Shown: positions 24,345 through 51,224, counted from the first letter of the whole stretch. The stretch: 60,409 nucleotides of DNA, filler included, from Dugesia japonica (GCA_001938525.1; 5 parts of 5 records of this genome joined end to end with filler, not necessarily neighbours in it), one strand, 5' to 3'. Numbers and translations: made by a program. The notes: generated from the sequence alone by a model not told the origin.

Positions 24345-24975
24345 ATTTTAGACTGTCCGGAACATATAAAGACTGCAAAATATCTTTGCAATAATATGAA
24401 GACTACCCAATGTCTTGCAATAATATCATAAATATCAAGACTGCCAAATATCTTTGAAAAATATCAAGTCGACCCAATATTAAAATATTAAGGCTGCCAA
24501 ATATCATACATAAATATCAAGACTTCAAAAAAAAATTAATACTGACCAATCTCTTGCAAAAATATAAAGACTGTTAAATCTACTGCAAAATATAAAGACT
24601 ATCACAATGTTGTTTATTAATGATTGCAATAGGGATGTAATATGAATGAAATACGACAACACGTGCCTGATAATTTAAATAAATGCAATAGAGATGCAAT
24701 ATAAATGCAATACAGCAACGATTGCCTGGGAAATTTTAGACTGCCCAAAACTCTTACTAAAATATCAAGACTGTCCCATCCTTTGCAAAAAATTCTGCTT
24801 ATTCATTTATTTTAAATAAAACATCATTTTAAAAAAATTAATCATTTTTAATTAAAATCATTATTTTAAACAAATTAATCATTTTTAATTAAAATTAACT
24901 TTATCAAGACTCCCTCTATCCCATGCAAAATATAGAGACTCCCCAATACCATTCAAAATATCAAGACTGCTCAAA
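24345..24975. repeat. Degenerate ~30-bp tandem repeat (AAAATATCAAGACTGCCAAATATCTTGC)
   Basis: Recurrent AAGACTG cores at roughly 30-bp spacing, interrupted by AT-rich blocks. Confidence 0.8.
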
Positions 24976-34829: not shown

Positions 34830-37527
34830 AAATTAGTTACTAAAACAACAATTGAGTAAATAAATATATTAAATTTTCACTAAAAATGTTTCTTATTTCT
34901 TATCAAATTCCTCCTAAATTACTTTATAAAAATTCCTCACTTTGTTTCTAACCAAATAGATGATAATTAATTCAAGCACAGACTTTAATAAAATAATGAA
35001 CTATTATATTAATTAAATGACAGTTTGAGACGATTTTATTAATGAATCAAAAATAGCAGTCTATTGGGATACCTTTTTGAATATTTTTAGCATAATGGTT
35101 GTACATTAGTCTAATTGGTACCAGATTTTTACGTAATAACTATTGAACTAAAAATCCGTATTCATATATTATTAAATAATCATTGTTTTCGGTTTGGAAT
35201 CGGAAATCGGCACCCCATTAGTAAAAAGTATAGAAAAATTTATAAATTTTATTAAAAAATTATATAAATANTAATTTATTACAGAAATTTTATTTNTTTA
35301 TGCTAAAATATTACGTTCTCTGGTCGCTAAACAATCTAGAGATACTGACTACAATGGAATTAATATAAAATTCAAAATAAATTTAAATATTTAGCCTTAT
35401 CTAAATTTATTTCGAAAAATAAATAAGATCATAAGCAATTCTAGGATTATAAAGAATTGTTTTATTTAAAAAATCCCCAATTACACCTAATTCTATTTTT
35501 ACGGGATAATTACTTTCCCCGACAACTCGCTTAAGAACGTAATAAATGAATCCATAGAAAACATTAATTACCGTTTATTTAATTCAGTAAAATTTATGTG
35601 AAATTTTTTTAATAACTTCTTACTTTAAATATTAAATTTAAACTGCACACCTGCACTGTACATTAACCAAAACTAATGTGAAATCTCCTGCATAAGTGTC
35701 GTAATTTTTTTGTATCACACGATTTAGTGTTTATTTCTAGAAATGTGTTAAAGCAAGCATCTAAATATTTTTTCTCACTAAAATTGTTTTGAAAAAAATT
35801 TAAACCATGTAAAAACGGAGTACAATTTTTTTGGAATCGCGTAAAAACATAATTAGGTGTGTTTAGTTTTCAACCCAACAATATATAGATTTCATACTAA
35901 ACACGCTAATACTGATTATATTATTTGATTTAAAATATACGCATATAAATCTTTTTCAAAACTACTTATGGAATTATTTTTTTGGATTTAATTAGTTTTA
36001 GTTTTTTTTCAATTTTATTTCTCACAATTAAATTAATTTCATTTTTCAGTCACGCAATATTATGTTACCCATGAGTAATTTTTAATTCAATTTGATGTAC
36101 ATTGTGTAATATTATTTAACTAAAATTTTTCAATTTAATCTTCATTATCTTATTTTATTTATCTATTTAAAATCGATCTGGTTTTATTCCTAAAGATTGA
36201 ACGATATTATTTTCGACATTTTAAATTTTTGTTATGCAAGTCTGTTTATTAATAAAAAATTTACCAAATGTTATAATACATATAGTGCGCAAAAATTTTT
36301 GTTATTTTTTGTGATAGACATTCTTTAAAATTGCATTATTAAAATTGGATGTTGCATTTATATTGACAGTTAACATAAATGTCATCATTTATATAGATTA
36401 GAGTGCATTGATATTTGACTTATATTTTCTAAATCTATAACAACAAAAAAGACTCTTGTGAATTTAAAGAATTCNNNNNNNNNNNNNNNNNNNNNNNNNN
36501 NTTTGGCGATTGTTACTTTTCTTTTTATTTCTTTGAACATTTTGTTACTGTTATAATAATTATAGTTTGATAGTGATAAAGCTTTGTTGATTTATGTGCG
36601 TCAGTAAATAAAATATTACATACGTTTTCAAAATCTATTGTTTTAGGTCTTTCAAATGACATCGTTTAATCTGTTAATTTTGAATCAAATATTAAATCGT
36701 AAACTAAATTTAGATTTGTATTGTTTTATCAAAATAGTCGTTTGACATAAGAACTGACAAAAAATGACATCTTTCGAGTTTTTATTTCCTTTTCGTAGTT
36801 ATATAGAATCCTGATTTGCAACCGCTCACTTGATACTCACTATTGAAATTTATTTACTTTATTTTATATTTTATTTTATTTAATTTATTTTTATTGGAAT
36901 TTTTTATTAATAATCAACGAACTTGCGAGGATATTATAACATATGAAGTCCACTTATTAAATAATAATAAATAAAATAAAAAAATAAAAATCCCAGATGG
37001 ATTTTTATTGTAACTTTTTAATATATTCAACTTTAAATAATTAATAGATTTACTATTATGTAGCTATCTCATTTTGCTTTTTGAAAAAAGTATAATGACA
37101 ACACTATGATAATAATAACAATGTATTGGCGCATATATATATATATATATATATATCCCTCATATATATTTTCCCAGTAATATCCGGCTTAACGTTGAAG
37201 ATACTTTCAAAAATCCATGACTTCCCAATGTTATCAACGGCTTTCAAATTTCTTAATTAAGAAAAAGTTGGAAAAAATATTTTAACAATTTTTGCCAAAG
37301 ATTTGAATTACGTTATAGTGAAAATCACGCTAAAGGAGTAGCGTTAAATGAGGTATTATTGCATATTTGATATGGTTAAATACGATTTGATTTCATTAAA
37401 ACAAATATTAAAAAGTTATCAAAACTGATATTTGCATTTTCATTTATTTATAAAAATAGTAACTTATTCCTTATGGAACAGTTGTTCTCATATGGTGAAT
37501 GAAATCTCTTAGTACTTTTTCAAAGGT

Positions 37528-37627
37528 NNNNNNNNNNNNNNNNNNNNNNNNNNNNNNNNNNNNNNNNNNNNTTAATTAATTAANNNNNNNNNNNNNNNNN
37601 NNNNNNNNNNNNNNNNNNNNNNNNNNN
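37528..37627. other. Artificial scaffold-joining linker
   Basis: N44-TTAATTAATTAA-N44. Confidence 0.97.
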
Positions 37628-37811
37628 ATATTTTTTCGCATTCTGGATACATTTCATTTATTATTCTTCTTGCAAGATCTGAGAAAAAGAATAAATAAAT
37701 ACATAAGAATAAAATTTACCTCCTTTGGATATTTCTTCTCCATTTCTTAAAAGCATTTTGAAATTATCTGTGAACAGTAAAATAAATTGTATATATATAT
37801 ATATATATATA

Positions 37812-38230
37812 AGTATAGGTATATGGACGGTTTTAAGGCCGGGGGGTACCCCTCCCCACTTCAGATGAAAAATATTTTATGAAAAATGTCAAATGAAAAA
37901 TATTTCAAATGAAAAATGTCAGATGAAAAATGTCAAATGAAAAATATTTCAAATGAAAAATATTTTATGAAAATGCCGGGATGCAAATATTTTATGAAAA
38001 TGTCGAATGTAAAATATTTTATGAAAAATTGTTTTAAAGACTATTGTTTTAAATTGTATACCCAATCTCATTTCAGATGAAAAATATTTTATGAAAAATG
38101 TCAGATGTAAAATGTTTCATGAAAAATGTTCAACTAAAAATGTTCGACTAAAAAATATTTTATGAAAAATGCCAAACTAAAATATTTCAGATGAAAATGT
38201 CAAACCAAAATGTTTCATGAAATATTTAAG
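37812..38230 (+). repeat. Left terminal inverted repeat
   Basis: Exact reverse complement of the right end up to 38041/50682, then imperfect to 38230/50445. Contains a GGGGTACCCC palindrome and many ATGAAAAAT subrepeats. Confidence 0.95.
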
Positions 38231-38254
38231 CGGTTTAAATTTTTAATATAGAAA

Positions 38255-38869
38255 ATGAGTGTTAATAAAAAAGCTGTTCAAGAATTTTCTTTGGAAAATG
38301 TGATTGATGTAATGAGTGGCATGGTTGATATAAAAGAGGCAAATATAGATGAATTAATTAATTACTCAAAATGCGAATTTACAAAAGAAATTGCAGAAAA
38401 TAATTTAAAATTTATTAATCAATTATATGATAAATTAGAAGAATTGAATTTACCTGCAAAAAATAAAAATTATTTTAAAAACATTATAACTACTTTTATG
38501 ATAAAATTTACAAGTGATGAGTGCAAAAGTTTAGTGCTTGAATTACTTGAAGGAAAATATATAGCCGCTCTTCAAACTATTAAAGAAACTAATGAAAAAT
38601 ATCAATTAGAAAGAGATGAGCATAATGATTTAAGAAAAAAATATAATGAAGAATTAAAACCACAAAAAATTGGAAGGGGTTTTATTCAATATACACCTAG
38701 AAAAAGTGATGGAAAAAGACAATATGTAAAACATGAAGATGTTCTTAATTTAGTAGATAGATTATTTGCGGATCCTGAAAAATATTTACAACTTTCTAAA
38801 GATAGATTAATTAATATATCTACAAAAGGAAGCAAAAGTATTGCAAATGCACAGGCTAAATTAAGATAA
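38255..38869 (+). CDS. Hypothetical viral protein, 204 aa, helical/coiled-coil
   Basis: Intact ORF directly inside the left TIR with ATAGAAAATG start context; no recognisable motif. Confidence 0.75.
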   Translation: MSVNKKAVQEFSLENVIDVMSGMVDIKEANIDELINYSKCEFTKEIAENNLKFINQLYDKLEELNLPAKNKNYFKNIITTFMIKFTSDECKSLVLELLEGKYIAALQTIKETNEKYQLERDEHNDLRKKYNEELKPQKIGRGFIQYTPRKSDGKRQYVKHEDVLNLVDRLFADPEKYLQLSKDRLINISTKGSKSIANAQAKLR

Positions 38870-38882
38870 TAAGAAATAGCAA

Positions 38883-39194
38883 ATGGACTCAGTTTAATAT
38901 AAAACATTAATTGAATATAATTTTGAAAATAATTCAATAAAAAATTTTTGTAAAATTTATAATATTAGTAAAGTAACAGTAAAAAAATATTTAAAGAAAT
39001 GGAATATAAAATATAAAACAAACACATTTAAAATTTATCATAGAAATTTAAAAGGGCAGTTTATTTCTTTGATTGACACATTTGAAGGTGATAAAAAATT
39101 AAATGTTATTCATATTAAGAGCAATAGTGAATTATTTAATTGTGATGAAGTTGGAGAAAGGATGAAAAAATTATATGGGTTTAAAAAAAAATAA
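38883..39194 (+). pseudogene. Small HTH-like protein (104 codons) with a premature TAA at codon 5
   Basis: ATG GAC TCA GTT TAA, then an open frame YKTLIEYNFENNSIKNFCKIYNISKVTVKKYLKKW...YGFKKK*. The SI..FC....IS..TV..YL pattern resembles an HTH. Missing from the ORF track. Confidence 0.55.
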
Positions 39195-39336
39195 ATGGTA
39201 AAATGGAAAATGGAAAATGGTAAAATGGAAAATGGAAAAAAATGGAAAATGGTAAAATGGAAAATGGAAAATGGTAAAATGGAAAATGAAAATAAATAAA
39301 ATAAACACATGCATAAAAAAACACTATAATAAAAAG

Positions 39337-40665
39337 ATGATTAAATTAGATTTAGATGATAATATTCATTTTTCACATACATCAATTAAAAATGATTTAT
39401 TAATAATTTCTCCATCAGCATCATCATTAAACAAATTAAATTCTTCAGGTGAAATTGTTTTTCAATCTTTACAATCAACAAATCCACTTGATATTTGTAA
39501 TTCAATGTTATACTTTGAAATTGAAATTACAGTTGCAGATGTAACAAAAACAATATTAGAAAATAACTTCTTTCCTAGTTTATTTAGTTCAATGAGATTT
39601 ATCATAGGCTCATCAGAAGTTGAAACAGTTCATGATCCTGGTGTTATATCTACAATGTTAAATTTAATATCTACAACTGAAACATGGAAAACAGAATATG
39701 GTCAAATGTCAGGATGGATGCCAGATATAAATAAAGGTGACACTGAAGTAACAAGTTGGGATTGTAACATGGGATTTTATAACAGAAAGAAATTATATTC
39801 ATCTAAAACATTTGAAGGTTATTTTCAATTGAGAAATTTATTTGGTTTCATGCAAAATTATAACAGACTTTTATATAATACAATGATAGAGTTCAGATGT
39901 AATAGACAATTAGATGATAAATTAATATTTTATGGAGCAAAAGATGACACAGCAAAATTAACAATAAAAACTTTAGAACTTCACATTCCAGAATGTAATT
40001 TATTACCTAGAAAAGAATTATCAATATTAGAAAGAATAGCTACAGATAAGCCTATTAAAGTTTCTTATTTAAATAGAATAACTGGTAAAACTAATATTGA
40101 AACTGGTGGAAATTATANAATAAAAATTAGTAGTTTAGCATATCAACCTAGATTTGTTTTTATTTGTTTTAAAGATAATAAAATTTCAGAAGAAAAAAAT
40201 AATAATTTATTTATTCAAAAATCTACTAAAAAAGTTAAAGAAACAACCAAAGTTGGTGATAAAGAAGAAACAAAAGAAGTAATAAAAACCAGTTATTTAC
40301 AAAGTATACAATTAGTATTAAATAATACTTACTATCCAATAATCAAATGTGAATTTAACATGTTAAATAATCAAATGATTTATCCATACATGGCATATGT
40401 AAAATGTTGTCATCAATTTTTAACAGAACCACAATTATCATTAATGGATTTTGGTAATTTATATCCAATGTTTTGTTTTGACACTTCAGCGCATGATGAT
40501 AAAATGAATATTAATAATGTTGATGTAACACTAAAGATTACAAAAGATCCAGATTTTAAAGGTACTATTCATTGGTGCATACTTGAAGAAAAACATATTG
40601 AAATGAAATTATCCAACAGCAAAATTGTTATGATTGAAAATATTAGAGGTATTGATATTCAATGA
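39337..40665 (+). CDS. Major capsid protein, double jelly-roll (~442 aa)
   Basis: LNSSGEIVF, S.LYFE, NNFFPSLFS.MR..I...EVE....PG..STM, L..LFGF, PRFVFI.F, L.LN..YYP and PMFCFD.S match the Polinton/adintovirus capsid pattern. The track's 39271 start lies in a repeat, so ATG 39337 is preferred. Confidence 0.88.
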   Translation: MIKLDLDDNIHFSHTSIKNDLLIISPSASSLNKLNSSGEIVFQSLQSTNPLDICNSMLYFEIEITVADVTKTILENNFFPSLFSSMRFIIGSSEVETVHDPGVISTMLNLISTTETWKTEYGQMSGWMPDINKGDTEVTSWDCNMGFYNRKKLYSSKTFEGYFQLRNLFGFMQNYNRLLYNTMIEFRCNRQLDDKLIFYGAKDDTAKLTIKTLELHIPECNLLPRKELSILERIATDKPIKVSYLNRITGKTNIETGGNYXIKISSLAYQPRFVFICFKDNKISEEKNNNLFIQKSTKKVKETTKVGDKEETKEVIKTSYLQSIQLVLNNTYYPIIKCEFNMLNNQMIYPYMAYVKCCHQFLTEPQLSLMDFGNLYPMFCFDTSAHDDKMNINNVDVTLKITKDPDFKGTIHWCILEEKHIEMKLSNSKIVMIENIRGIDIQ

Positions 40666-40762
40666 AAAATTTTAAATATTAAATTTAAGAAATGAAAAAC
40701 TTCATATGTGACAATTGTGGTAAAATATTACGACGCTGTTAAATGATAAATTAAATAAATAG

Positions 40763-42127
40763 ATGAAGAATTTTATCTGTGAAGAATGTGGTAAAATAAT
40801 CTTAAAGAAAAATAAGTCAAGACATTTAGATTTATGCATTAATAAAGTAAAATTTCCTCCAGAATCAAGACATTTAGATTTGTGTATTAATAAAGTAACT
40901 CAATATATGGGAGGCGATATTCAAAATTCAAAATTTATATCTAAAATTTTAAAACCAATAACTACAGAAAAATATCCTGGTGAAAGACATTTATTTAAAC
41001 ATAATTACACTGGACCTGGAACGCGATTAGATATTAGATTAGATTCTGATAATATTCCAAATCCTGGTGAAGAACCAATTAATAAAGTTGATGAAGCCGC
41101 ATTAAAACATGACATTGCGTATAATTCTGAAAACATACGCGATCGTCATATTGCAGATGTAAATTTAATACATGATCTTAATAATATTGAAAATCCTACA
41201 TTAACAGAAAAATTTCAAAGAGCTCTTGTAAAATTAGCAATGAAAGGTAAAATAATAATTGGTAGCGGAGGCACAAAAAAGAATCCATATAAAAAAAGTA
41301 CAATTATAGATGAAGAATCTGATGACGAGCAAATTGAACAAAGAGATATTTTATCAAAAGAACTTCACAAAGAATATAAAAGACCTAAACATTTTAGAAA
41401 AGTAATTGTACATGCAAAAGATGACATTTGGTCTGCAGATTTAATATTTTATGGAATTGAAAGAAAAGGTAAAAATGTAATATTAACAGTTATAGATCTT
41501 TACACAAGATATGCATTCATAGAATTAACAAATCGAAAAACTGGTCCAGCAATAACAAAAGCATTTGAAAATATTATTGAAAAAAGTAATAGAGTTCCAA
41601 ATAAATTATGGGTTGATAAAGGTAAAGAATTTTATAATTCAACATTTAAANNNNNNNNNNNNNNNNNNNNNNNNNNNNNNNNNNNNNNNNNNNNNNNNNN
41701 NNNNNNNNNNNNNNNNNNNNNNNNNNNNNNNNNNNNNNNNNNNNNNNNNTTTCAACATTTTACTGCCGTTGGATCTCAACAAATAGATTTAAAATTATTA
41801 GAACAAATTGTAAATGATTACAATAACAGTGTACATTCTAGTATTAAACTTACACCTCAAAATGCTTCATTAAATCCTGAAAATGTTCTCCCTAAAAAGG
41901 CGAAGCCTTTTAATGAAAAGTTAAGATTTAAAATTGGAGATCGTGTAAGAATAACTAAAATAGGAAAAACTTTTCCTAAAGGTTATACATTTAAATGGTC
42001 AAAAAGAATTTATATAATTACAAAAATTTATCATGAGAAACCTTTTACATTTGAAATCTCAAATCTTAACGGCAACAAAATATTGGGAAGATTTTATAGT
42101 AATGAATTACAGAAATCAGGCTTTTAA
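40763..42127 (+). CDS. Zinc-finger + parvovirus-type phospholipase A2 + retroviral-like (rve) integrase fusion
   Basis: CEECGK...RH; HNYTGPGT...PINKVDEAALKHDIAY (PLA2 Ca-loop and H-D helix); IWSADL, LTVIDLYTRYA, LWVDKGKEFYN (first two catalytic D; the E falls in the N gap); FKIGDRVRI..KGY..KWS..GRFY..ELQK tail. Confidence 0.92.
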   Translation: MKNFICEECGKIILKKNKSRHLDLCINKVKFPPESRHLDLCINKVTQYMGGDIQNSKFISKILKPITTEKYPGERHLFKHNYTGPGTRLDIRLDSDNIPNPGEEPINKVDEAALKHDIAYNSENIRDRHIADVNLIHDLNNIENPTLTEKFQRALVKLAMKGKIIIGSGGTKKNPYKKSTIIDEESDDEQIEQRDILSKELHKEYKRPKHFRKVIVHAKDDIWSADLIFYGIERKGKNVILTVIDLYTRYAFIELTNRKTGPAITKAFENIIEKSNRVPNKLWVDKGKEFYNSTFKXXXXXXXXXXXXXXXXXXXXXXXXXXXXXXXXXFQHFTAVGSQQIDLKLLEQIVNDYNNSVHSSIKLTPQNASLNPENVLPKKAKPFNEKLRFKIGDRVRITKIGKTFPKGYTFKWSKRIYIITKIYHEKPFTFEISNLNGNKILGRFYSNELQKSGF

Positions 42128-42226
42128 ATGTAAAATGTAAAATGTAAAATGCAAATGTAAAATGTAAAAATGTAAAATGTAAAATGAAAAATATAAAGGG
42201 TTATGATTAAAATAAAAACATAGAAA

Positions 42227-42427
42227 ATGCGTATGTTAGATCCCACACCAAGCAAAGTTTATTATAAATATGAAGATGAAAATGATTACACACAAAGTGA
42301 AGAAAGTGAAAATGAAAATGAAAATGATTACACACAAAGTGAAGAAATTGAAGAAATTGAAAATAATTATGATAATGATAATTATCCGATTTTTAATTTA
42401 CCACGAGATAGAAATTATTTATTATAA
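42227..42427 (+). CDS. Small acidic protein (66 aa)
   Basis: Fills the integrase-ATPase gap; same ATAGAAAATG start context; internal ENDYTQSEE duplication. Confidence 0.5.
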   Translation: MRMLDPTPSKVYYKYEDENDYTQSEESENENENDYTQSEEIEEIENNYDNDNYPIFNLPRDRNYLL

Positions 42428-42448
42428 AAATTGCGAAGCTCATAAAGA

Positions 42449-43204
42449 ATGTCAACTCCTTTAGTCTGGAATAATAATTTAACAAAGTTTAATAATAAAG
42501 TTCTTCCTAATAATTTTAGATTATTAATTATAGGGTCTTCTGGTTGTGGTAAAAATATTTTATTAATGAAAATGTTATTAACTACAGATTTTTTAGATTA
42601 TGATACATTAATTTTTTATTCCACAACAATTAATCTATTTGAAATACAACTGTTATATTTAGGATTTGAAAATGGACTATCTAAAGATGAAATTTATTAC
42701 ATGTTTGAAAAACAAAGTTTAGTACCAAAAAATTTAACAACTCCAAATCAAGTTATAAATTATTATTTAGATAAAAAATTAGTAACTAAAAAATCTAGAT
42801 CAATAAATGTTACATTATCAAATAAACNTAATGAAATTATTTCATGTGACAAACTTTCAAGAGAAAAGAAAAATTTAATAATCTTTGATGATGTAGTTAA
42901 TGAAAAGAATCAAGAAATTCAAAAAAGTTATTTTACAAGAGGTAGACATTCAAATTGTAATGTAATTTATATTTCACAAACATATTATCATTTAGATAAA
43001 AACTCTATCAGAAATAATTCAAATTGTTACATATTTTTTAAGTTAAATAAAACTGATAGAGATAATGTTTATCATGAATTATTTTCTAATGTTTTTAATA
43101 ATAAATCTGAATTTGACTATGAAGTAAATTTACATTGGAAAACTAAATATAATTATTTTTACTTAAATAAAGAGACTGATGAAATGTTGGATGATTTATT
43201 CTAA
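42449..43204 (+). CDS. A32/FtsK-like genome-packaging ATPase
   Basis: Walker A LLIIGSSGCGKN, Walker B LIIFDDV, RGRH arginine finger, IYISQ, IRNN. Confidence 0.93.
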   Translation: MSTPLVWNNNLTKFNNKVLPNNFRLLIIGSSGCGKNILLMKMLLTTDFLDYDTLIFYSTTINLFEIQLLYLGFENGLSKDEIYYMFEKQSLVPKNLTTPNQVINYYLDKKLVTKKSRSINVTLSNKXNEIISCDKLSREKKNLIIFDDVVNEKNQEIQKSYFTRGRHSNCNVIYISQTYYHLDKNSIRNNSNCYIFFKLNKTDRDNVYHELFSNVFNNKSEFDYEVNLHWKTKYNYFYLNKETDEMLDDLF

Positions 43205-44317
43205 TTGTTTGATTTCAAAAAATCTTTTAATCTTTTTTAATTCCTTTTCTACTATAGTTGTAAATGACCAAGTTGATTTTAATACATCTGGATATTTATC
43301 AGCAAATTTATAAAATTTTATTATTTTATTTATAAAATTAATTTTATATGGAATTCCAAGTGAATTTATATGTTTTTCTACTTTATCATTATTTTTAAAT
43401 TTAGTTTTTATTATTTCAAAGAAATATCCCAAATTATAATAACTTATTAAAGTAATTCGTTTTCCAATACTTAAAGTAAAATACCAATTTTTAATATTAT
43501 CATCTAAATTTGCTGCAGACTGTTTGAGGTTATTATTAACATTTGGATAAACAAAAAGATTTACAATTGATTCTGAAAATCTTTTAAAAAATTCTTTATC
43601 ATTTTCAATTTTATCATCTTTAATAATTTCATCTTGAATTTCAATTATTTGAATTTCATCTTTAATAATTTCATTTTGAATTTCAGACTGTGCGGAGCCC
43701 AGCGAAGTGCATTCAGATTCAGATTCAATATTTTCATCTTTAATAATTTCATTTTGAATTTCAGATTNNNNNNNNNNNNNNNTTTCATCTTTAATAATTT
43801 CATTTTGAATTTCAGATTCAGATTCAGATTCAGATTCAGATTTAATATTTTTATCTTTAATAATTTCATCTTTAATAATTTCATCTTTAATAATTTCATC
43901 TTTAATAATTTCATTTTGAATTTCAGATTCAGATTCAGATTCAATATTTTCATCTTTAATAATTTCATCTTTAATAATTTCATCTTTAATAATTTCATCT
44001 TTAATAATTTCATTTTGAATTTCAGATTCAGATTTAATATTTGCCACATAATCTATAACATGTTTTTTAATATTATTATCTTGTCTAAGATGTGGTAATC
44101 TACTTCTTTTACGCTTTTCTTCATCTATAATATAAGGTTGTACGGAGTCCAGCGCGGCGCCTTTCGGTTTTTCAGAGCGAACATATTCATCCTCATCAAA
44201 TTTTATTTTTCCATCAACACAAAATATATTTTTATTAATTTTGATTATACAATCATCACAACATAAATTATGTATTTGTCCATAATAAATTTTTGTATTA
44301 AAATAATGAGCCTTCAT
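43196..44317 (-). CDS. Hypothetical protein (373 aa) with (IIKDE)n/SESEIQNE repeats and a helical C-terminal domain
   Basis: Long open frame convergent with the ATPase (stops overlap); 15-nt and 6-nt tandem units at 43600-44040. Confidence 0.75.
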   Translation of the reverse strand: MKAHYFNTKIYYGQIHNLCCDDCIIKINKNIFCVDGKIKFDEDEYVRSEKPKGAALDSVQPYIIDEEKRKRSRLPHLRQDNNIKKHVIDYVANIKSESEIQNEIIKDEIIKDEIIKDEIIKDENIESESESEIQNEIIKDEIIKDEIIKDEIIKDKNIKSESESESESEIQNEIIKDEXXXXXXSEIQNEIIKDENIESESECTSLGSAQSEIQNEIIKDEIQIIEIQDEIIKDDKIENDKEFFKRFSESIVNLFVYPNVNNNLKQSAANLDDNIKNWYFTLSIGKRITLISYYNLGYFFEIIKTKFKNNDKVEKHINSLGIPYKINFINKIIKFYKFADKYPDVLKSTWSFTTIVEKELKKIKRFFEIKQLE

Positions 44318-44378
44318 TTTCTATATATAAAATTTAATCATATCAACTGTTCGGATCCGAACAAATTGGGCCCCTTGG

Positions 44379-45008
44379 TTATATTCCTAATTTCAACTTC
44401 ATCTCATTAATAATTTTATTTTGATTTTCAATTATTAATTTAAAATTTTCTTCCTTCTTTTTTTTATTTCCAAAAATTAATTCATGTACTTCATTTACCA
44501 TGTTCTTACTAATAGTTAATTCTTCATCAGTTAAAATTTCATCATGTACAGCTTTCTCTTGAAATAGAAATAATTTATTTTTAACACACTCAAGATTCTT
44601 AATTAATTTTTCATATCTTTCTTTTCTAGATTTAATTAATGAAGAATTTAATGCTCCTATTACAGGCAGAACTGATACAGCTCCTGTAATACAAGATACA
44701 CCAATTGCAGCAACAGCTGCTCCAACTGGTGTGATAAATATTACTCCTGCTATTCCAATTCCTGCACTTACAACTATTTGTGTATATTTAATAGTAGAAT
44801 CTATTCTACTCCATCTTCTATGTATCTTCTTATAATGTTTAATTTTATCTTTAATAAAGTAAAGATCATTTTCAAAATCTCTAATTCTAGATAATGCAAG
44901 TTTATTTTTTAAATCACGAAGCTCACTTCCAGCATAATCTTCTTGTAAGCTAGGATATAATTGTCCGGAGGCCAGCGTAGCGAATTTATTTATATTTTCT
45001 TCTTCCAT
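44379..45008 (-). CDS. Conserved adintovirus-type hydrophobic-hairpin membrane protein ('GasderminX'-like)
   Basis: LYPSL, a helical basic region, a Gly/Ala-rich double hydrophobic segment (VSAGIGIAGVIFITPVGAAVAAIGVSCITGAVSVL) and a KA..D..LTDEE tail. Confidence 0.7.
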   Translation of the reverse strand: MEEENINKFATLASGQLYPSLQEDYAGSELRDLKNKLALSRIRDFENDLYFIKDKIKHYKKIHRRWSRIDSTIKYTQIVVSAGIGIAGVIFITPVGAAVAAIGVSCITGAVSVLPVIGALNSSLIKSRKERYEKLIKNLECVKNKLFLFQEKAVHDEILTDEELTISKNMVNEVHELIFGNKKKKEENFKLIIENQNKIINEMKLKLGI

Positions 45009-45013
45009 TTTTA

Positions 45014-47982
45014 TTATGAAAATTTTATTTTAATTATAATTTTATTAATGGAAATTCCTTTAGGTAAAGTTAATGAGAAAAAAGAAGTATTTTTATTAGT
45101 ATGCGAAAAATAAAACATTTTAGTTATATAATCATAAAAATTATTTTCTAATGAACTCCCTTCCTCACCGGTGAACATTTGTCTAATATTATTAATTTTA
45201 TATTCTATAAATTCACTTTCAGAATAACCGTTAACATAATAATTAATATTACAAACAATAAATGTATTTAAAGAAATAATTAATGGTTCTTTAAGATAAA
45301 AACATTTTTGATTGTCTATATTTTTTATTACACCTTTTCTTGTAAAATCTAAATACTTTACATTCTCTCTATTAATAGAATAATATGGAAGATTATCTGT
45401 TTCACTATCATTATCTATATGAAACCATAATATTAAATTTTTAGTTAAATTATTTTTATGTGGCAACCAATTATCAATTAAATGTTTAAGTGTTAAGTCT
45501 TCACCATTATATTCTTTTATTAAAATATTAATTCTATCAATAAAAATTTTATGAAGTTTTGGTTTTATTCTTTCATATTCTTTTAATAATTCTTCAGGAA
45601 TTTTATAACCAAGTAATTTAACATTTAAATTATTTAAAAAAATTCCTTTAGGTAAAATTATTTGTATAAAATTTATATTACTAACATTTAAAATTTCTTT
45701 ACTTTCANNNNNNNNNNNNNNNNNNNNNNNNNNNNNNNNNNNNNNNNNNNNNNNNNNCTAACATTTAAAATTTCTTTACTTTCACGATAAATTTTCATAA
45801 GATTATCATCAGGTTTAACAAATAAAAATGAAACTGCAAAATGATTAATTTTAATGATATATGTAAATTTTTCAACTTCACAAAAACCATCTANACTTAT
45901 ACTAACTTTATATTTTAATTTTGTATATAATGAAATAGTTAAAGAATCTTTAATATTAAAATAATAATCACTAAATGTTGTATGTTTTATGCAATCTTTT
46001 CTTATAAAATCTAAATCATACACATATTTATCTATAACAGTAAAATATGGAAGAGTATCATTTTTCTTAGTAGGAAGTATTGAAAATATTATATCTTCAT
46101 TAGTTATATTTGAGTAAGGTAAGTAATTATCAATTAAATGTTTTATATTTTTATTATCATATGTTTTAGATAAAATGTTAAATTTATCAATGTAAATTTT
46201 ATGTAGGTTTGGTTTTATTGTTTCATATTCTTTATTTAATTCTTCATAAATTTTTAACTTGTATGTTTTAATAATTAAGTGATTAAAATAAATTTTTTCT
46301 GGTAAAATTATTTCAATATAATTTATTTGTTCAGATACTAACTTTGCAAAATCAGTACTTTCACGATAAATTATTATTTTATTATCAGGTGTAAAATAAT
46401 ATTCCCATGATAATGCTATATGATTAATTTTAATAATGTAAGTAAATCTTTTTTCATGATGCCCTTCTATAAATATACAAAGTTTTTCATTAATGTTAAG
46501 ATATAATTTAATAATTAAAGATTCATCAAGATAAAACCCTTTTGTAATCATTCTACCGTTTCTTTTAAAATCTAAATTCTTTACTTGATTATTTATTTAA
46601 AATTGTGGAAGAATTTTTTCTCTAAAACAGATAATTGTTAATATTGAATTATCATCTGGCATAAAAACATATGGTAAGTAATTATCAATTAGTTCTTTTA
46701 AATTTTTAACTATTGTTTCAGAATATTTTTCTTTAGATGATTTAAATAAAATATTAATTCTATCAATAAAAAATTTATGCATACTTGGTTTTATTCTTTC
46801 ATATGCTTTAGTCAATCTATCAATAATTTCTAATTTATATATATTAACACTTAAATTATGTAAATAAATTCCTCTTGGTAATTCTATTTCAATAAAATTT
46901 ATATTAACATCTTTATTAACTTCAGTACTTTCACGAAAAATATCAACTCTATTAGTTATATCTTTTCTATATATAAATCTATAATATAAATTGTTAATTT
47001 TAATGGTATAAAAAAATTTTTCAATATCACAATAACCAATTATACCTATACTAATTTTTTCATTTATCTTTGTATGTAAAATAATAATTAAAGGTTCTTC
47101 AAGATAATAATATTGAATGTTAGAAATAAGTTTCATTACACCTTTTCTTTTGAAATCTAAATTGTGAATATATTTACTCATAATACTAAATTGTGGAAGG
47201 GTTTCATGTTTTTCATAACACCAAATTAAAAAAATTATTTTATTAGTTTGTATAAAATAATATGGTAAGTAATTATCAATTATTTCTTTTATACTTTTAT
47301 ATGTTACATCAGAAAGTGTTTCTTTATAAGTGTTAAATAAAACATTAATTCTATTAATGAAATAACTATGTAGTTTTATATTTCCAATTTCTTTATGCAC
47401 TTTATTAATTTTAAATCTAAAATCTTCTATATTTAATTTAATTATATTAATATAATTTAAATATTCATCAAATGTTTTCTTATCTATATCAAGATGTAAT
47501 TTTATAATTTTATTATCTAATGTGATAATTTCTTTTTTAATTTTCCATGATAAATCGTTACTACTTAACTTTTTTAAATTAAAAATTAAATCACTTCTTT
47601 TAAATGGGAAAAGTACATATTTTATTCTTTTAATATCAGAACCAACATTATCAAATGACTCATCATTAGTGACCTTTGAAAGATTTTTAATTTTAAATTG
47701 TAAATAAATTTTATTAATTGTGGATTCATTAACTTTTAATATTTTTGAGAAGATAAATTCGTGACTTTGTAATTTATCTTCTAATTGTTTAATATATTTT
47801 AAATTAACTGCATCATTGAGATCTTTTGGATCTTCTGTTATTTTTAAAGATGTAATTGTGTCACCTGTTTCATTTACATATTTATTGTCATTATTTGCAT
47901 TAGCTAATCTAATTCTAGCATCAACTCTTTTCATTATTTGTGCATTGCCTGTTTTATATATACTTTCTCCAAATCTATTCAT
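45014..47982 (-). pseudogene. Fibre/spike-like protein (~963 codons, four ~190-aa repeats) with one internal TAA; split into three ORFs in the track
   Basis: ORFs 46597-47982 and 45688-46551 share a frame and are separated by a single TAA. The 50-N gap (45708-45757) is flanked by the same 27 bp, and collapsing it puts 45014-45466 in frame. N-terminal GD..T.L....DP.D..DAVN.KYI is a fibre-shaft-like motif. Confidence 0.75.
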
Positions 47983-48409
47983 TTATTAATGATAATTTAT
48001 CATATAAATTTTTCATCTCTAAAATTATATCTTCGAAGTTGGTATGTTTAAGTGAATATAAAAAATAAATACATAAGACACCACAAATTTTAGTACCAAA
48101 ATGTTGCACTTGAATTTTATTATATTTCTTTATAAATTTTTCTAATTCTTCTAAAGGTTTCAATCCAAAAGAGTCAAAATAAAAACCTTTAGTATAGGCA
48201 ACCCAATGAGTTCCTTTTTGATTTGTATTTTGATAATTAAAAATATAATTACCTTTATTTAATATTTTACATTTTTCATTTTTCATATAAATTTCTAAAG
48301 GTAGATTTAAAAATTCCGCAATTGAATATAAATCAAAATTTGTAGTTGTAGAGATTCCAAATGTTTTTAAGAAATCAATTAAATTATACTTTTGGTCGCC
48401 TCGCTCCAT
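47975..48409 (-). CDS. Adenain-like cysteine maturation protease
   Basis: GTHWVA, YFDSFG..P and Q.Q......CG..C give the H-D-Q-C catalytic order. Confidence 0.93.
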   Translation of the reverse strand: MERGDQKYNLIDFLKTFGISTTTNFDLYSIAEFLNLPLEIYMKNEKCKILNKGNYIFNYQNTNQKGTHWVAYTKGFYFDSFGLKPLEELEKFIKKYNKIQVQHFGTKICGVLCIYFLYSLKHTNFEDIILEMKNLYDKLSLINE

Positions 48410-48426
48410 TTATTAAATGTAAAATG

Positions 48427-48807
48427 TTACATGCGATATTTTCTTAAATGAACTAAAATAGAAATTGTTTCTTGGTTAAAATCTATTGTGTTAAAGTTTT
48501 CATCTACCACATTAAATATTAAACTTGAAATGTAATTTGTATTAATTATAGAATAAATTGGAACTGATTGTCTTTCAATAATTTTATGACCAAATGGAAC
48601 TGTGTTTATTGGAAATGAATATAATAAATTTATTTGTTTAGATTCTCCATTTGGAGTTTTTACATAATTATCTTTAACAATATTACAAGTTACATTTATC
48701 ATGTTAATAGGTGAAATGTCAATTTTCGTTTCTGAATAATAATTTCCTGGTGGATAGGATTTTACTGAGAAACTGAAAATTTTATGAAAGAAAGATTTAT
48801 TATCAAA
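48427..48807 (-). pseudogene. Minor capsid protein (penton, single jelly-roll), C-terminal half only
   Basis: INVTCNIV, LYSF...VP.GHKI.E, DEN..IDF..E.I. The frame stays open upstream of the track's Met (FDNKSFFHKIFSF...SETKIDI) up to the junction with polB, with no native start. Confidence 0.75.
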
Positions 48808-50365
48808 AGTTTATTTCACCTATAAATTCTTTTATTAATTTATTTTCTTTAATATCATCTAATGTTTCACTAATTTCTTCTAAAAAGTTAAAGTAATCAT
48901 TAAAAATGTTTTCACCTGAAAATTTAATATATTTACTTTCTAATAAATTTGGATAATCACTATGAAGATAAACACCTAATGATATTGGTTTTTGTTTTTT
49001 TGTATTAATATCTGTGTAAGCTTCAAAATCTCCAACAAGTACAAATGGAATTTTATTTTTCTGATAAAATTTATTAAATGAATAATAATCAGTATGTTCA
49101 AATNCAATGTTATTTGGTTTATGTTTTATACAAAGTTCTTGATGTTTAATTAATCTTTCTTCACTTGAATAACAATTCATACATCTGATGCATGGATAAT
49201 TTTTATTTTTATTAGTTGTAAAAAATACTGTTATATCTCGACATAAAATATAATGATTTTTATATACTAACAAATTACATTTATTTTCTTCTGGATCTGG
49301 TTTTGATATGTGATGTGAAATGTGTAATGGTTCAAGTTTTTTATTATCATTTACACTGAAAACATTTATTTCTAAATTATTTAATTTCTCGAATTTACTT
49401 ATATCATCAATTTTGATTGGAAATGTAACCTTGTCATATTTTAATTCTGATAAATGTGGAATGTAATTATTTACACGAGTTGGATTTTCAAATAAATGTT
49501 TATGTGCTAAAATTGAATAAAGAAAACATTTATTATCATCTTTATTTTCTATATTTATTACTCCTGGTTTTTTAAATGGTAATTTACGATATGTTGCTCC
49601 AGCTAATGATTGATATTTAGAAAGATCTAATTTATAATCAATTATGTTCACCATTGTCCATCCTGAACCTTCCTTATCTTCATCTTCAATGTATCTTTGT
49701 AATTCATTAAATATTTCATTAACACCATTTGATATTTCATTTTCAATTGTAAATCTTTTATTTTTTGAATATGATGTAAAATCTTTTTCAACATTTTCAT
49801 TATTTATTTCTTTTTCATATCTACAAGTTACTGTCATACTTACAACAATCTTTTTACCATAATTAAAATACTTTGTAATAATTTCTTTAACTTCTTTTTT
49901 AAATGTATTAATTTCTCTAACTATTTCTTTAACATTTTTAGTCATTGACACTTTACTTTCTTTGAAATATTCAATTTCATAATCTTTATATTCTCTTAAA
50001 AGATCTCTAATTTCTGGATCAAAATCAATTGATTCTTCACCAGGTAATTCACCAAATAAAATTTTGTTAACTGTTTCTTTATGTGTTGGAGAATTGTAAT
50101 GTGCCTTTGCGGTGGATTGTCTAGAAAATGTTTTATTGCAAAATAAACACTTTAATGGAACCTTTTCGGGATTTCCACAAAGTGATGAATTTAAATGTTC
50201 ACGTAGACCATTTTCCGTTTTAAATAGCCTGTGACATTTTTGGCATTGAAATGATGATGTTTCATTTCTAAAACAAGTTCTAGATCTACTATGTCCAATT
50301 AACCCTGCTAAGTTTTTAAATAGCTTTCCACAGTTAGGACATTTATTTATGTTTCTTTCTGTCAT
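48803..50365 (-). pseudogene. polB: pPolB N-terminal part with three C2H2-like zinc fingers, truncated early in the exonuclease domain
   Basis: CPNC..H, CQKC..H, CLFC..H..H; EGSGW; INIEN.D.KCF.YSILA; FEKLN; HY; C.RC...H...C; FVLVGDFEA (ExoI). The frame then ends without polymerase motifs A/B/C. The likely start is MTERN (50365), because the track start lies in the TIR. Confidence 0.9.
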
Positions 50366-50444
50366 TTTATAATCAAATAATTTAATCACACCTACTTTTT
50401 TAGGGTTAATTTTTATTTTATAAATTACTCTTAAATTAATTCCT

Positions 50445-50911
50445 CTTAAATATTTCATGAAACATTTTGGTTTGACATTTTCATCTGAAATATTTTGGTT
50501 TGACATTTTCATCTGAAATATTTTAGTTTGGCATTTTCATCTGAAATATTTTAGTCGAACATTTTTAGTTGAACATTTTTTTATTTTGGCATTTTTCATA
50601 AAATATTTTGGTTGAACATTTTTAGTTGAACATTTTTCATAAAATATTTTTCATCTGAAATGAGATTGGGTATACCCCCCTGTCTTTAAAACAATTTTTC
50701 ATAAAATATTTTACATTCGACATTTTCATAAAATATTTGCATCCCGGCATTTTCATAAAATATTTTTCATTTGAAATATTTTTCATTTGACATTTTTCAT
50801 CTGACATTTTTCATTTGAAATATTTTTCATTTGACATTTTTCATAAAATATTTTTCATCTGAAGTGGGGAGGGGTACCCCCCGGCCTTAAAACCGTCCAT
50901 ATACCTATACT
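50445..50911 (-). repeat. Right terminal inverted repeat
   Basis: Reverse complement of 37812-38230. Confidence 0.95.
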
Positions 50912-50955
50912 TATATATATATATATATATATACAATTTATTTTACTGTTCACAG

Positions 50956-51095
50956 ATAATTTCAAAATGCTTTTAAGAAATGGAGAAGAAATATCCAAAG
51001 GAGGTAAATTTTATTCTTATGTATTTATTTATTCTTTTTCTCAGATCTTGCAAGAAGAATAATAAATGAAATGTATCCAGAATGCGAAAAAATAT
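50956..51095 (+). CDS. Two small exons of an unidentified spliced gene in the element's flank (mirrored at 37628-37767)
   Basis: CACAG|48-nt exon 50956-51003|GT..41-nt intron..TCTCAG|exon from 51045. The spliced frame is open: NFKMLLRNGEEISKGDLARRIINEMYPECEKI. Confidence 0.5.
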
Positions 51096-51195
51096 NNNNN
51101 NNNNNNNNNNNNNNNNNNNNNNNNNNNNNNNNNNNNNNNTTAATTAATTAANNNNNNNNNNNNNNNNNNNNNNNNNNNNNNNNNNNNNNNNNNNN
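51096..51195. other. Artificial scaffold-joining linker
   Basis: N44-TTAATTAATTAA-N44. Confidence 0.97.
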
Positions 51196-51224
51196 AGTTA
51201 AAGAAAAATCAAGTACTGTATTTC

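Follow-up and report, generated by a model that had tools for sequence, protein, structure and literature searches.

A 24-base in-frame cassette of two predicted mini-hairpins in two genes of a Polinton-type element, and its probable spread by copying without a transposase of its own

The window, by which is meant the whole stretch of 60,409 nt of DNA that was analysed, contains an element of 13,670 bases (~13.7 kb) that lies between 515-base terminal inverted repeats (TIRs) in an AT-rich eukaryotic contig. The two 515-nt arms are 100% complementary. The GC content of the element is 22% as against 29% in the flanks, and CpG (window 37527-51196) is depleted, with an observed/expected ratio of 0.47 in the element and 0.90 in the flanks. 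The main features, counted from the first base of the window, are as follows.

37527..38041, + strand: left TIR, 515 nt, its outer end partly N
39271..40665, + strand: double jelly-roll major capsid protein (PF21738, E 1e-12; 10 homologs)
40763..42127, + strand: ORF with a PLA2-like domain and an rve integrase core (PF08398, PF00665; rve E 4e-8)
42449..43204, + strand: A32-like packaging ATPase (PF04665, E 8e-10; 64 homologs)
43196..44317, - strand: 373-aa ORF with a low-complexity EIIKD/ESE repeat; holds cassette copies 1 and 2
44379..45008, - strand: ORF of 209 aa, hydrophobic in a central segment, whose family has a YP motif near the N-terminus; holds cassette copy 3
47975..48409, - strand: probable adenain-like protease (weak PF00770 match, E 0.01, under the family cut-off)
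48803..50512, - strand: C2H2 zinc-finger ORF, 569 aa, starting beside the right TIR
50682..51196, - strand: right TIR, 515 nt

Long TIRs, an rve integrase, a jelly-roll capsid protein and a packaging ATPase are Polinton hallmarks. The target-site duplication of Polintons is 6 bp, and the outer ends of this element read N where it would stand. The 569-aa zinc-finger ORF, which matches ORFs in two relatives, we take on the strength of a motif to be likely the N-terminal part of a polymerase gene; it may be a truncated gene, and the element appears truncated. The element is of the Polinton/Maverick type. Since no DNA polymerase domain was found in its ORFs by Pfam, PHROGs or PDB searches and the 569-aa ORF is possibly incomplete, this copy is best called a probably non-autonomous one. 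Two further ORFs, of 287 and 461 aa (45300-47982), are made of diverged repeats of ~550-660 nt (families D7, D16 and D18) and gave no family in Pfam or PHROGs.

The cassette was recognized through a 16-base motif. A preliminary description of this DNA had placed three same-strand 16-mers at 43689, 44139 and 44962, each followed by NRGYG, had read them in the same frame in two genes (as SLGSAQ, ALDSVQ and TLASGQ), and had noted that the first interrupts the ESE repeat and that a perfect 16-base palindrome with the same half-site stands between the two ORFs. All of these observations were confirmed, including the ORFs, phases and peptides. The motif TGTNCGGAGNCCAGCG lies on the + strand in 3/3 cases, with no further match at up to 2 mismatches in the whole window and no copy in the 46.7 kb of host flank; shuffled windows contain 0.01 matches on average, and none of 100 reaches three. 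The copies start with YTGTNC, and 18 of 26 aligned columns are identical across all three. A register of 24 bases fits every copy, with TT to the right of all, TT to the left of copies 2 and 3, and CT to the left of copy 1. Because TT is frequent (17-24% of dinucleotides), a 2-base TT target duplication is possible but unproven. The three copies and the palindrome are arranged as follows.

43688..43711, + strand: cassette copy 1, with G-C as the variable pair; first hairpin GCGGAGC, then GC-GAA-GT as the second unit; occupies 24 nt within the repeats of the 373-aa ORF and keeps its frame
44138..44161, + strand: cassette copy 2, with A-T as the variable pair; GC-GCG-GC as the second unit; occupies 24 nt towards the N-terminal end of the 373-aa ORF and keeps its frame
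44348..44363, no strand assigned: perfect palindrome, 16 nt, intergenic, sharing the first 8 bases of the cassette
44961..44984, + strand: cassette copy 3, with C-G as the variable pair; GCGTAGC as the second unit; occupies 24 nt just ahead of the YP motif of the 209-aa ORF and keeps its frame

Copies 1 and 2 encode residues 203-210 and 53-60 of the 373-aa protein, and copy 3 residues 9-16 of the 209-aa protein; both ORFs lie on the minus strand and all three copies share the codon phase. Copy 1 stands between two units of the regular TTCAGA/ESE repeat, which it breaks. The 373-aa protein belongs to no Pfam or PHROGs family and has no relative in the 79 Polinton loci described below, among whose proteins there is likewise no homolog for comparison at copy 2; Atlas matches to its C-terminal 139 residues are unnamed or of low confidence only. 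For the 209-aa protein a word-based search gave no homolog and HMMER gave 135; since even the best of these is only 42% identical, they do not include sister copies from the host itself. The alignment of this family is too variable to serve as a search query. The Y of the YP motif is residue 18 here, as against a median of 8 in the 102 of 135 homologs with YP within the first 60 residues, and in 8% of those 102 it stands at residue 18 or beyond. Judged from these positions, copy 3 appears to add eight residues ahead of the conserved YP motif and so to lengthen the N-terminus.

The half-site TGTNCGGA occurs five times in the element, in the three cassettes and in both halves of the palindrome, where 0.24 would be expected. 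It is also found once in the host flank (24354-24364), inside a short imperfect palindrome with no cassette after it. The palindrome in the element is centred on 44355.5, only 6 nt away from 44361.5, the point halfway between the outer ends of the element, a coincidence of ~1 in 1000 that was judged post hoc; since the element appears truncated, its present midpoint may be accidental. A relation between palindrome and cassette is plausible, and the palindrome could arise from the first hairpin by fold-back copying.

Two bases of the motif core, N and N', vary between the copies and are Watson-Crick partners in 3/3 (G-C, A-T and C-G) around C-GGA-G. Below this pair lie a conserved T/C mismatch and then two more pairs, and the first hairpin is followed by a second small unit, G-C-GNR-G-Y. 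In the predicted structure 18/18 cells pair, as compared with 28-56% in slid structures, and one stem pair is changed on both sides in two of the three copies. The complementarity of N and N' and the TT-bounded 24-base register go beyond the preliminary description. The covariation rests on three copies and was noticed after the fact, and a shuffle of the 3' letters with three rows is not significant (79/500). Matches from pattern scans that behaved as chance were used as controls (9 in viral contigs, 107 prokaryotic, and 120 and 21 loci for two patterns derived from relatives). The two bases are complementary in 16/107 prokaryotic matches, 31/120 viral matches to a related pattern and 1/9 IMG/VR viral matches, these last falling in nine loci and themselves chance-like. 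The chance rate of 15-26% in the prokaryotic and related-pattern controls gives P = 0.003-0.018 for three of three, in a test made post hoc.

Stable mini-hairpins with a GNA triloop closed by C-G are described in the part available of PMC13037366. In all three copies the first hairpin has a GNA triloop with a closing C-G and one further pair; the second unit is exact in one copy, and the other two deviate by a G-T pair or a GCG loop. It would be the + strand that folds, since it carries GGA, GAA and GTA triloops closed by C-G, the stable mini-hairpin type. In ViennaRNA the folding energies of the six cassette strands show no advantage over shuffled sequences (z -0.2 to 1.7); the minimum-energy structures of the + strand lack the full first hairpin. 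As ViennaRNA shows no special stability, the folding of the cassette into two miniature hairpins on single-stranded DNA is predicted from the pattern and the literature. A hairpin in the mRNA may form but was set aside because its loop would be UCC and its stem weak. Elsewhere on the + strand of the element, a GAA-loop hairpin with a 7-bp stem is found in the C-terminal region of the integrase (41895-41911) and, shortly before the point where the ATPase starts, a perfect GCGAAGC (42433-42439). The former was considered as an insert and rejected, relatives being longer there, not shorter.

Both variable core bases fall on codon position 2, and the five third positions of the core are all fixed, four of them as G/C, in an element whose seven ORFs have a GC3 of 10%. 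That synonymous positions are fixed and amino-acid-changing ones vary places the constraint on the DNA. The preliminary description had named conservation at the protein level with free synonymous change as the contrary outcome; what was found is fixed synonymous positions.

Evidence on other copies of the element comes from contigs of four runs (three of organism A, one of organism B) aligned to 43640-45060 with 80% likeness; the contigs are short, and repeats can produce joints of this kind. At least four distinct joints touch the cassette, among the 12 of 42 joints given with their in-between letters. Two of them set a copy-3-type cassette beside repeat units of the 373-aa gene (43684 to 44961, X1; 44988 to 44009, X2), one has copy-3 and copy-2 types in tandem (44983 to 44135, X3), and one has a copy-2 type ~40 codons further along the 373-aa gene (44163 to 44034; X1, X2 and X3). 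The reading frame, deduced from phases and the number of in-between letters, is kept in 4/4. A fifth joint, from 43936 to 44960 (X1, X9), has a 21-letter side, and X2 and X3 each have one contig with 21 extra letters inside 44010-44110. No direct empty site for copies 1-3 in an orthologous gene was seen, and no N/N' variation among the sister-contig variants listed. As read from these contigs, the cassette appears to sit elsewhere in the same gene family in sister elements, in frame. A separate joint (45046 to 44379), seen in three runs, leads from the sequence preceding the 209-aa gene into the end of a second copy of that gene and suggests tandem 209-aa paralogs in sister elements. Read depth, which is not a copy number, drops from tens of thousands in the body of the 209-aa gene to some hundreds over its N-terminal end and over the 373-aa gene.

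Related Polintons were found in metagenomic data with an ATPase alignment; the scan covered 52/64 parts, and the 79 loci used are the best 79 of 105 confirmed. Neither the capsid protein nor the capsid or ATPase alignment brought up a related locus in IMG/VR. None of the 79 loci has the exact motif, and five matches with 3 mismatches lack the hairpin. Analogous inserts are nevertheless carried by several of them. Comparing L120 with its close sister L124, there are two 24-base inserts in L120 and one of 27 bases in L124, all in frame in the ATPase, and each carries a 4-6-bp hairpin with C-GAA-G or C-AAA-G. The two inserts of L120 are absent from the other aligned ATPases, and no clean target duplication is evident at them. 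One L120 cassette is present in four copies, in one of which a compensatory change from A-T to T-A affects the stem position that also varies in the window's cassettes. At another copy the L120 integrase has a nine-residue insert relative to L119, and at a further one there is a gap with respect to two relatives, not with respect to a third. The layout of the L120 cassette, G-K-N-C-loop-G-N'-C-C, is shared with the cassette of the window; as a pattern defined post hoc it has 10 matches in the 79 loci, as against 4.6 expected, of which 9 are complementary (5/6 without L120). L117 has a dispersed GAA-hairpin repeat, and L125 (1030-1120) a 21-nt unit repeated four times in tandem where a gene starts, with one mini-hairpin on either strand of every unit. 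L121 (1241-1264) has a 24-nt near-perfect palindromic insert that is absent from the nearly identical L119. This insert resembles a direct plus an inverted copy of adjacent bases, as fold-back template switching would make. Read in this way, the alignments indicate that several related Polintons carry analogous cassettes, present or absent between the close sisters L120 and L124.

An excess of such hairpins is also found in the AT-rich relatives as a group, with the AT-rich split and a G/C filter chosen after unfiltered hairpin counts had been seen. In 42 AT-rich loci (of 71 non-redundant) there are 13 4-bp C-GNA-G hairpins as compared with 1.85 after shuffling, and 16 with C-AAA-G as compared with 3.05; none of 40 shuffles reaches either count. 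Other closing pairs number 160 against 156 in shuffles, C-other-G, a class that includes the opposite strand of the same hairpins, 69 against 49, and the host flank has none of the C-GNA-G or C-AAA-G hairpins. The 29 GC-richer loci have 12 C-GNA-G hairpins against 6.5 and 3 with C-AAA-G against 4.9. Over all 79 loci neither 2-bp mini-hairpins (260 vs 240) nor stems of at least 5 bp (6 vs 5) are enriched. The 29 AT-rich matches fall in 15/42 loci, 7 of them in L120, and several are not insertions, some being plain coding sequence; hairpin-free in-frame indels of 9-24 nt are common between relatives. In the IMG/VR contig L320 (2000-3020; 51% GC) ten four-pair C-GNA-G/C-AAA-G hairpins were seen in 4 kb, eight of them on one strand.

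Taken together, it is fairly probable that the 24-base cassette, predicted to form two mini-hairpins and in frame in two Polinton-type genes, spreads by copying without a transposase of its own. Protein-primed B-family polymerases displace a long single strand, and the cassette would fold on the strand exposed in this way during protein-primed strand-displacement replication. The hairpin might then stall or redirect the polymerase, or be recognized by a replication or repair protein, and the unit would be copied to new sites by template switching at short TT (T/A) microhomology. In genes, the survivors would be in-frame inserts in tolerant loops or termini. Polintons are described as encoding a polymerase of the protein-primed B family in the available text of PMC6431247. 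Mobility is supported by the sister joints, which put the cassette at new places in genes of the 373-aa type or in tandem; no mobilizing protein was found with Pfam, PHROGs or Atlas. Inserts made by the integrase were considered, as the first hairpin and the palindrome run TG...CA, and were rejected, the 24-base unit having no CA end and the L120 cassettes no TG...CA. Neither does an AA/TT target preference account for the shared frame, AA being evenly spread over the codon phases.

The cassettes could instead be useful signals of the element itself, single-strand hairpins free of SSB that serve in priming, pausing or packaging and whose extra copies are kept by selection. The compensatory change in the stem would be expected of such a signal, and the three copies and 6/7 perfect mini-hairpins of the element lie on one strand, with CGNAG distributed 11 to 1 between strands. 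The copies are also within 1.3 kb around the element midpoint, close to which the palindrome lies, although in an apparently truncated element that position is possibly accidental. GCGNAGC-type mini-hairpins function at the G4 origin, at RSF1010 ssiA and at N4 promoters and bind SSB poorly, according to the available part of PMC13037366. However, the analogous cassettes come and go between close sisters and land in loops of conserved enzymes, none is present in the fragments of 27/42 AT-rich relatives, and the cassette sequence is not conserved between families. A useful signal is regarded as the main rival account, unlikely but with some chance of being right.

The cassette might also be a unit of the unstable repeat of the 373-aa gene, multiplied by slippage or unequal exchange and carried once to the gene next to it; neither special mobility nor a hairpin function would then be involved. 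The 373-aa gene holds two of the three copies and takes part in all four decoded sister joints, one joint has tandem cassettes, and slippage could explain the joints within the gene; the shared frame is not explained by target choice, and indels of cassette size are common between relatives. Slippage leaves unexplained, however, the three complementary pairs at one stem position and the G/C fixed at synonymous sites, as well as the hairpin inserts of analogous kind that relatives carry in their ATPase and integrase genes, which are not repetitive. This origin is considered improbable.

The preliminary description had proposed either a cis-acting site or a tiny insert tolerated in coding DNA. 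The insert has gained support, from the broken repeat, the eight residues before YP, the positions elsewhere in sister contigs and the filled and empty pairs of analogous cassettes in relatives. A duplex half-site, TGTNCGGA, recognized by an element or host protein such as a zinc-finger or HTH protein, singly in genes and as a dimer at the palindrome, has not. The fivefold occurrence of the half-site and the C2H2 zinc fingers encoded by the element would suit such a binder, and the N-C-GGA-G-N' symmetry could in principle be a dyad read in duplex. A binder gains nothing, however, from the partnership of N and N' while each varies freely, and the compensatory change points to a single-strand hairpin rather than a duplex half-site. 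The second halves of cassette and palindrome differ, the palindrome lacking the conserved CCAGCG half, and the copies behave as 24-base inserts and not as sites built by point mutation. Duplex binding is considered very improbable. Chance, or conservation of a short peptide LxSxQ, would account for the common reading frame of the three copies and four sister joints, but can hardly be upheld when none of 100 shuffles reaches three copies, the synonymous positions are fixed and the non-synonymous ones variable, and none of six motif-derived peptide patterns is present in the fetched homologous proteins.

The cassette is best read as a mini-hairpin insertion element that would be specific to its family and would resemble REPs or mitochondrial GC clusters, with Polintons as its setting. 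Only tentatively can this be extended to the idea that Polinton-type viruses might host their own class of minimal selfish DNA, consisting of family-specific double mini-hairpin cassettes of 21-27 bases that the replication machinery would copy unaided on displaced single strands and that would write 7-9 new residues into viral enzymes. By what route very short palindromic elements (mitochondrial GC clusters, Rickettsia palindromic elements and many REPs) move without an enzyme of their own is a question of long standing. It would become testable with a version of 24 bases carried by a small linear element that likely needs only one polymerase and has many sister copies in one host. Such cassettes would also supply loop insertions in conserved viral proteins and account for the odd GC-rich octapeptides by which Polinton alignments are disturbed.

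The literature searched (subscription papers and supplements lay outside the search) yielded no description of cassettes of this kind in Polintons, and the words 'hairpin' and 'palindrom' are absent from the main text of the adintovirus paper (Polinton/adintovirus sources PMC6431247 and PMC8502044). Palindromes are reported at the termini of virophages and PLVs, not inside genes, in the available part of a preprint (10.64898/2026.07.28.741278). With Polintons/Mavericks and adintoviruses, as far as these are covered in the text available of the two sources, the element has in common the TIRs, capsid protein, rve integrase, packaging ATPase and PLA2-like gene; it differs in the polymerase domain, which is not found in the copy studied here. 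The hairpins GCGGAGC of copy 1 and GCGTAGC of copy 3 fit the definition of GCGNAGC mini-hairpins exactly, and the other first hairpins keep the C-GGA-G core. Those of G4, RSF1010 and N4 are single fixed signals whereas the Polinton cassettes are dispersed inserts, and none from Polintons is described in the part available of PMC13037366.

The closest parallels are found in very short palindromic elements, which are compared here as described in the available parts of the sources. Yeast mitochondrial GC clusters such as GC42 (PMC4478555) are similarly short GC-rich hairpin units in very AT-rich DNA, with sporadic presence and absence (seen here for the analogous cassettes of L120 and L124, and for the window's copies only indirectly), a constrained structure, a target of 2 nt, which is AG in yeast and may be TT in the Polinton, and no transposase encoded by the unit. 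They have 42 nt and long stems, in contrast to 24 nt and two C-G-closed triloop mini-hairpins in a nuclear Polinton-type element; the contig also encodes a galactosyltransferase (Pfam), which speaks against the mitochondrial location of GC clusters. The REP/BIME sequences with their RAYT (PMC2817692) are of similar size, form single-strand stem-loops, keep their palindromes by complementary changes and occur in tandem arrays, and several have GAA, GGA, GCA or GTA loops, as here. REPs differ in a GT(A/G)G head, a long palindrome and an HUH transposase that is not in the element, no Y1 HUH transposase having been found in 11 element ORFs with Pfam or in 7 with PHROGs, and the Polinton copies lie inside genes of a eukaryotic element. 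Rickettsia palindromic elements (PMC10969869) share the in-frame insertion into unrelated genes and a recurring peptide, but are ~150 bp long and bacterial, as compared with 24 nt and 8 residues for the cassette. A MITE has terminal inverted repeats on its unit, whereas the ends of the 24-base cassette are not inverted repeats of each other in the three copies. The cassette works like GC clusters, REPs and Rickettsia palindromic elements, yet lacks what defines each of them.
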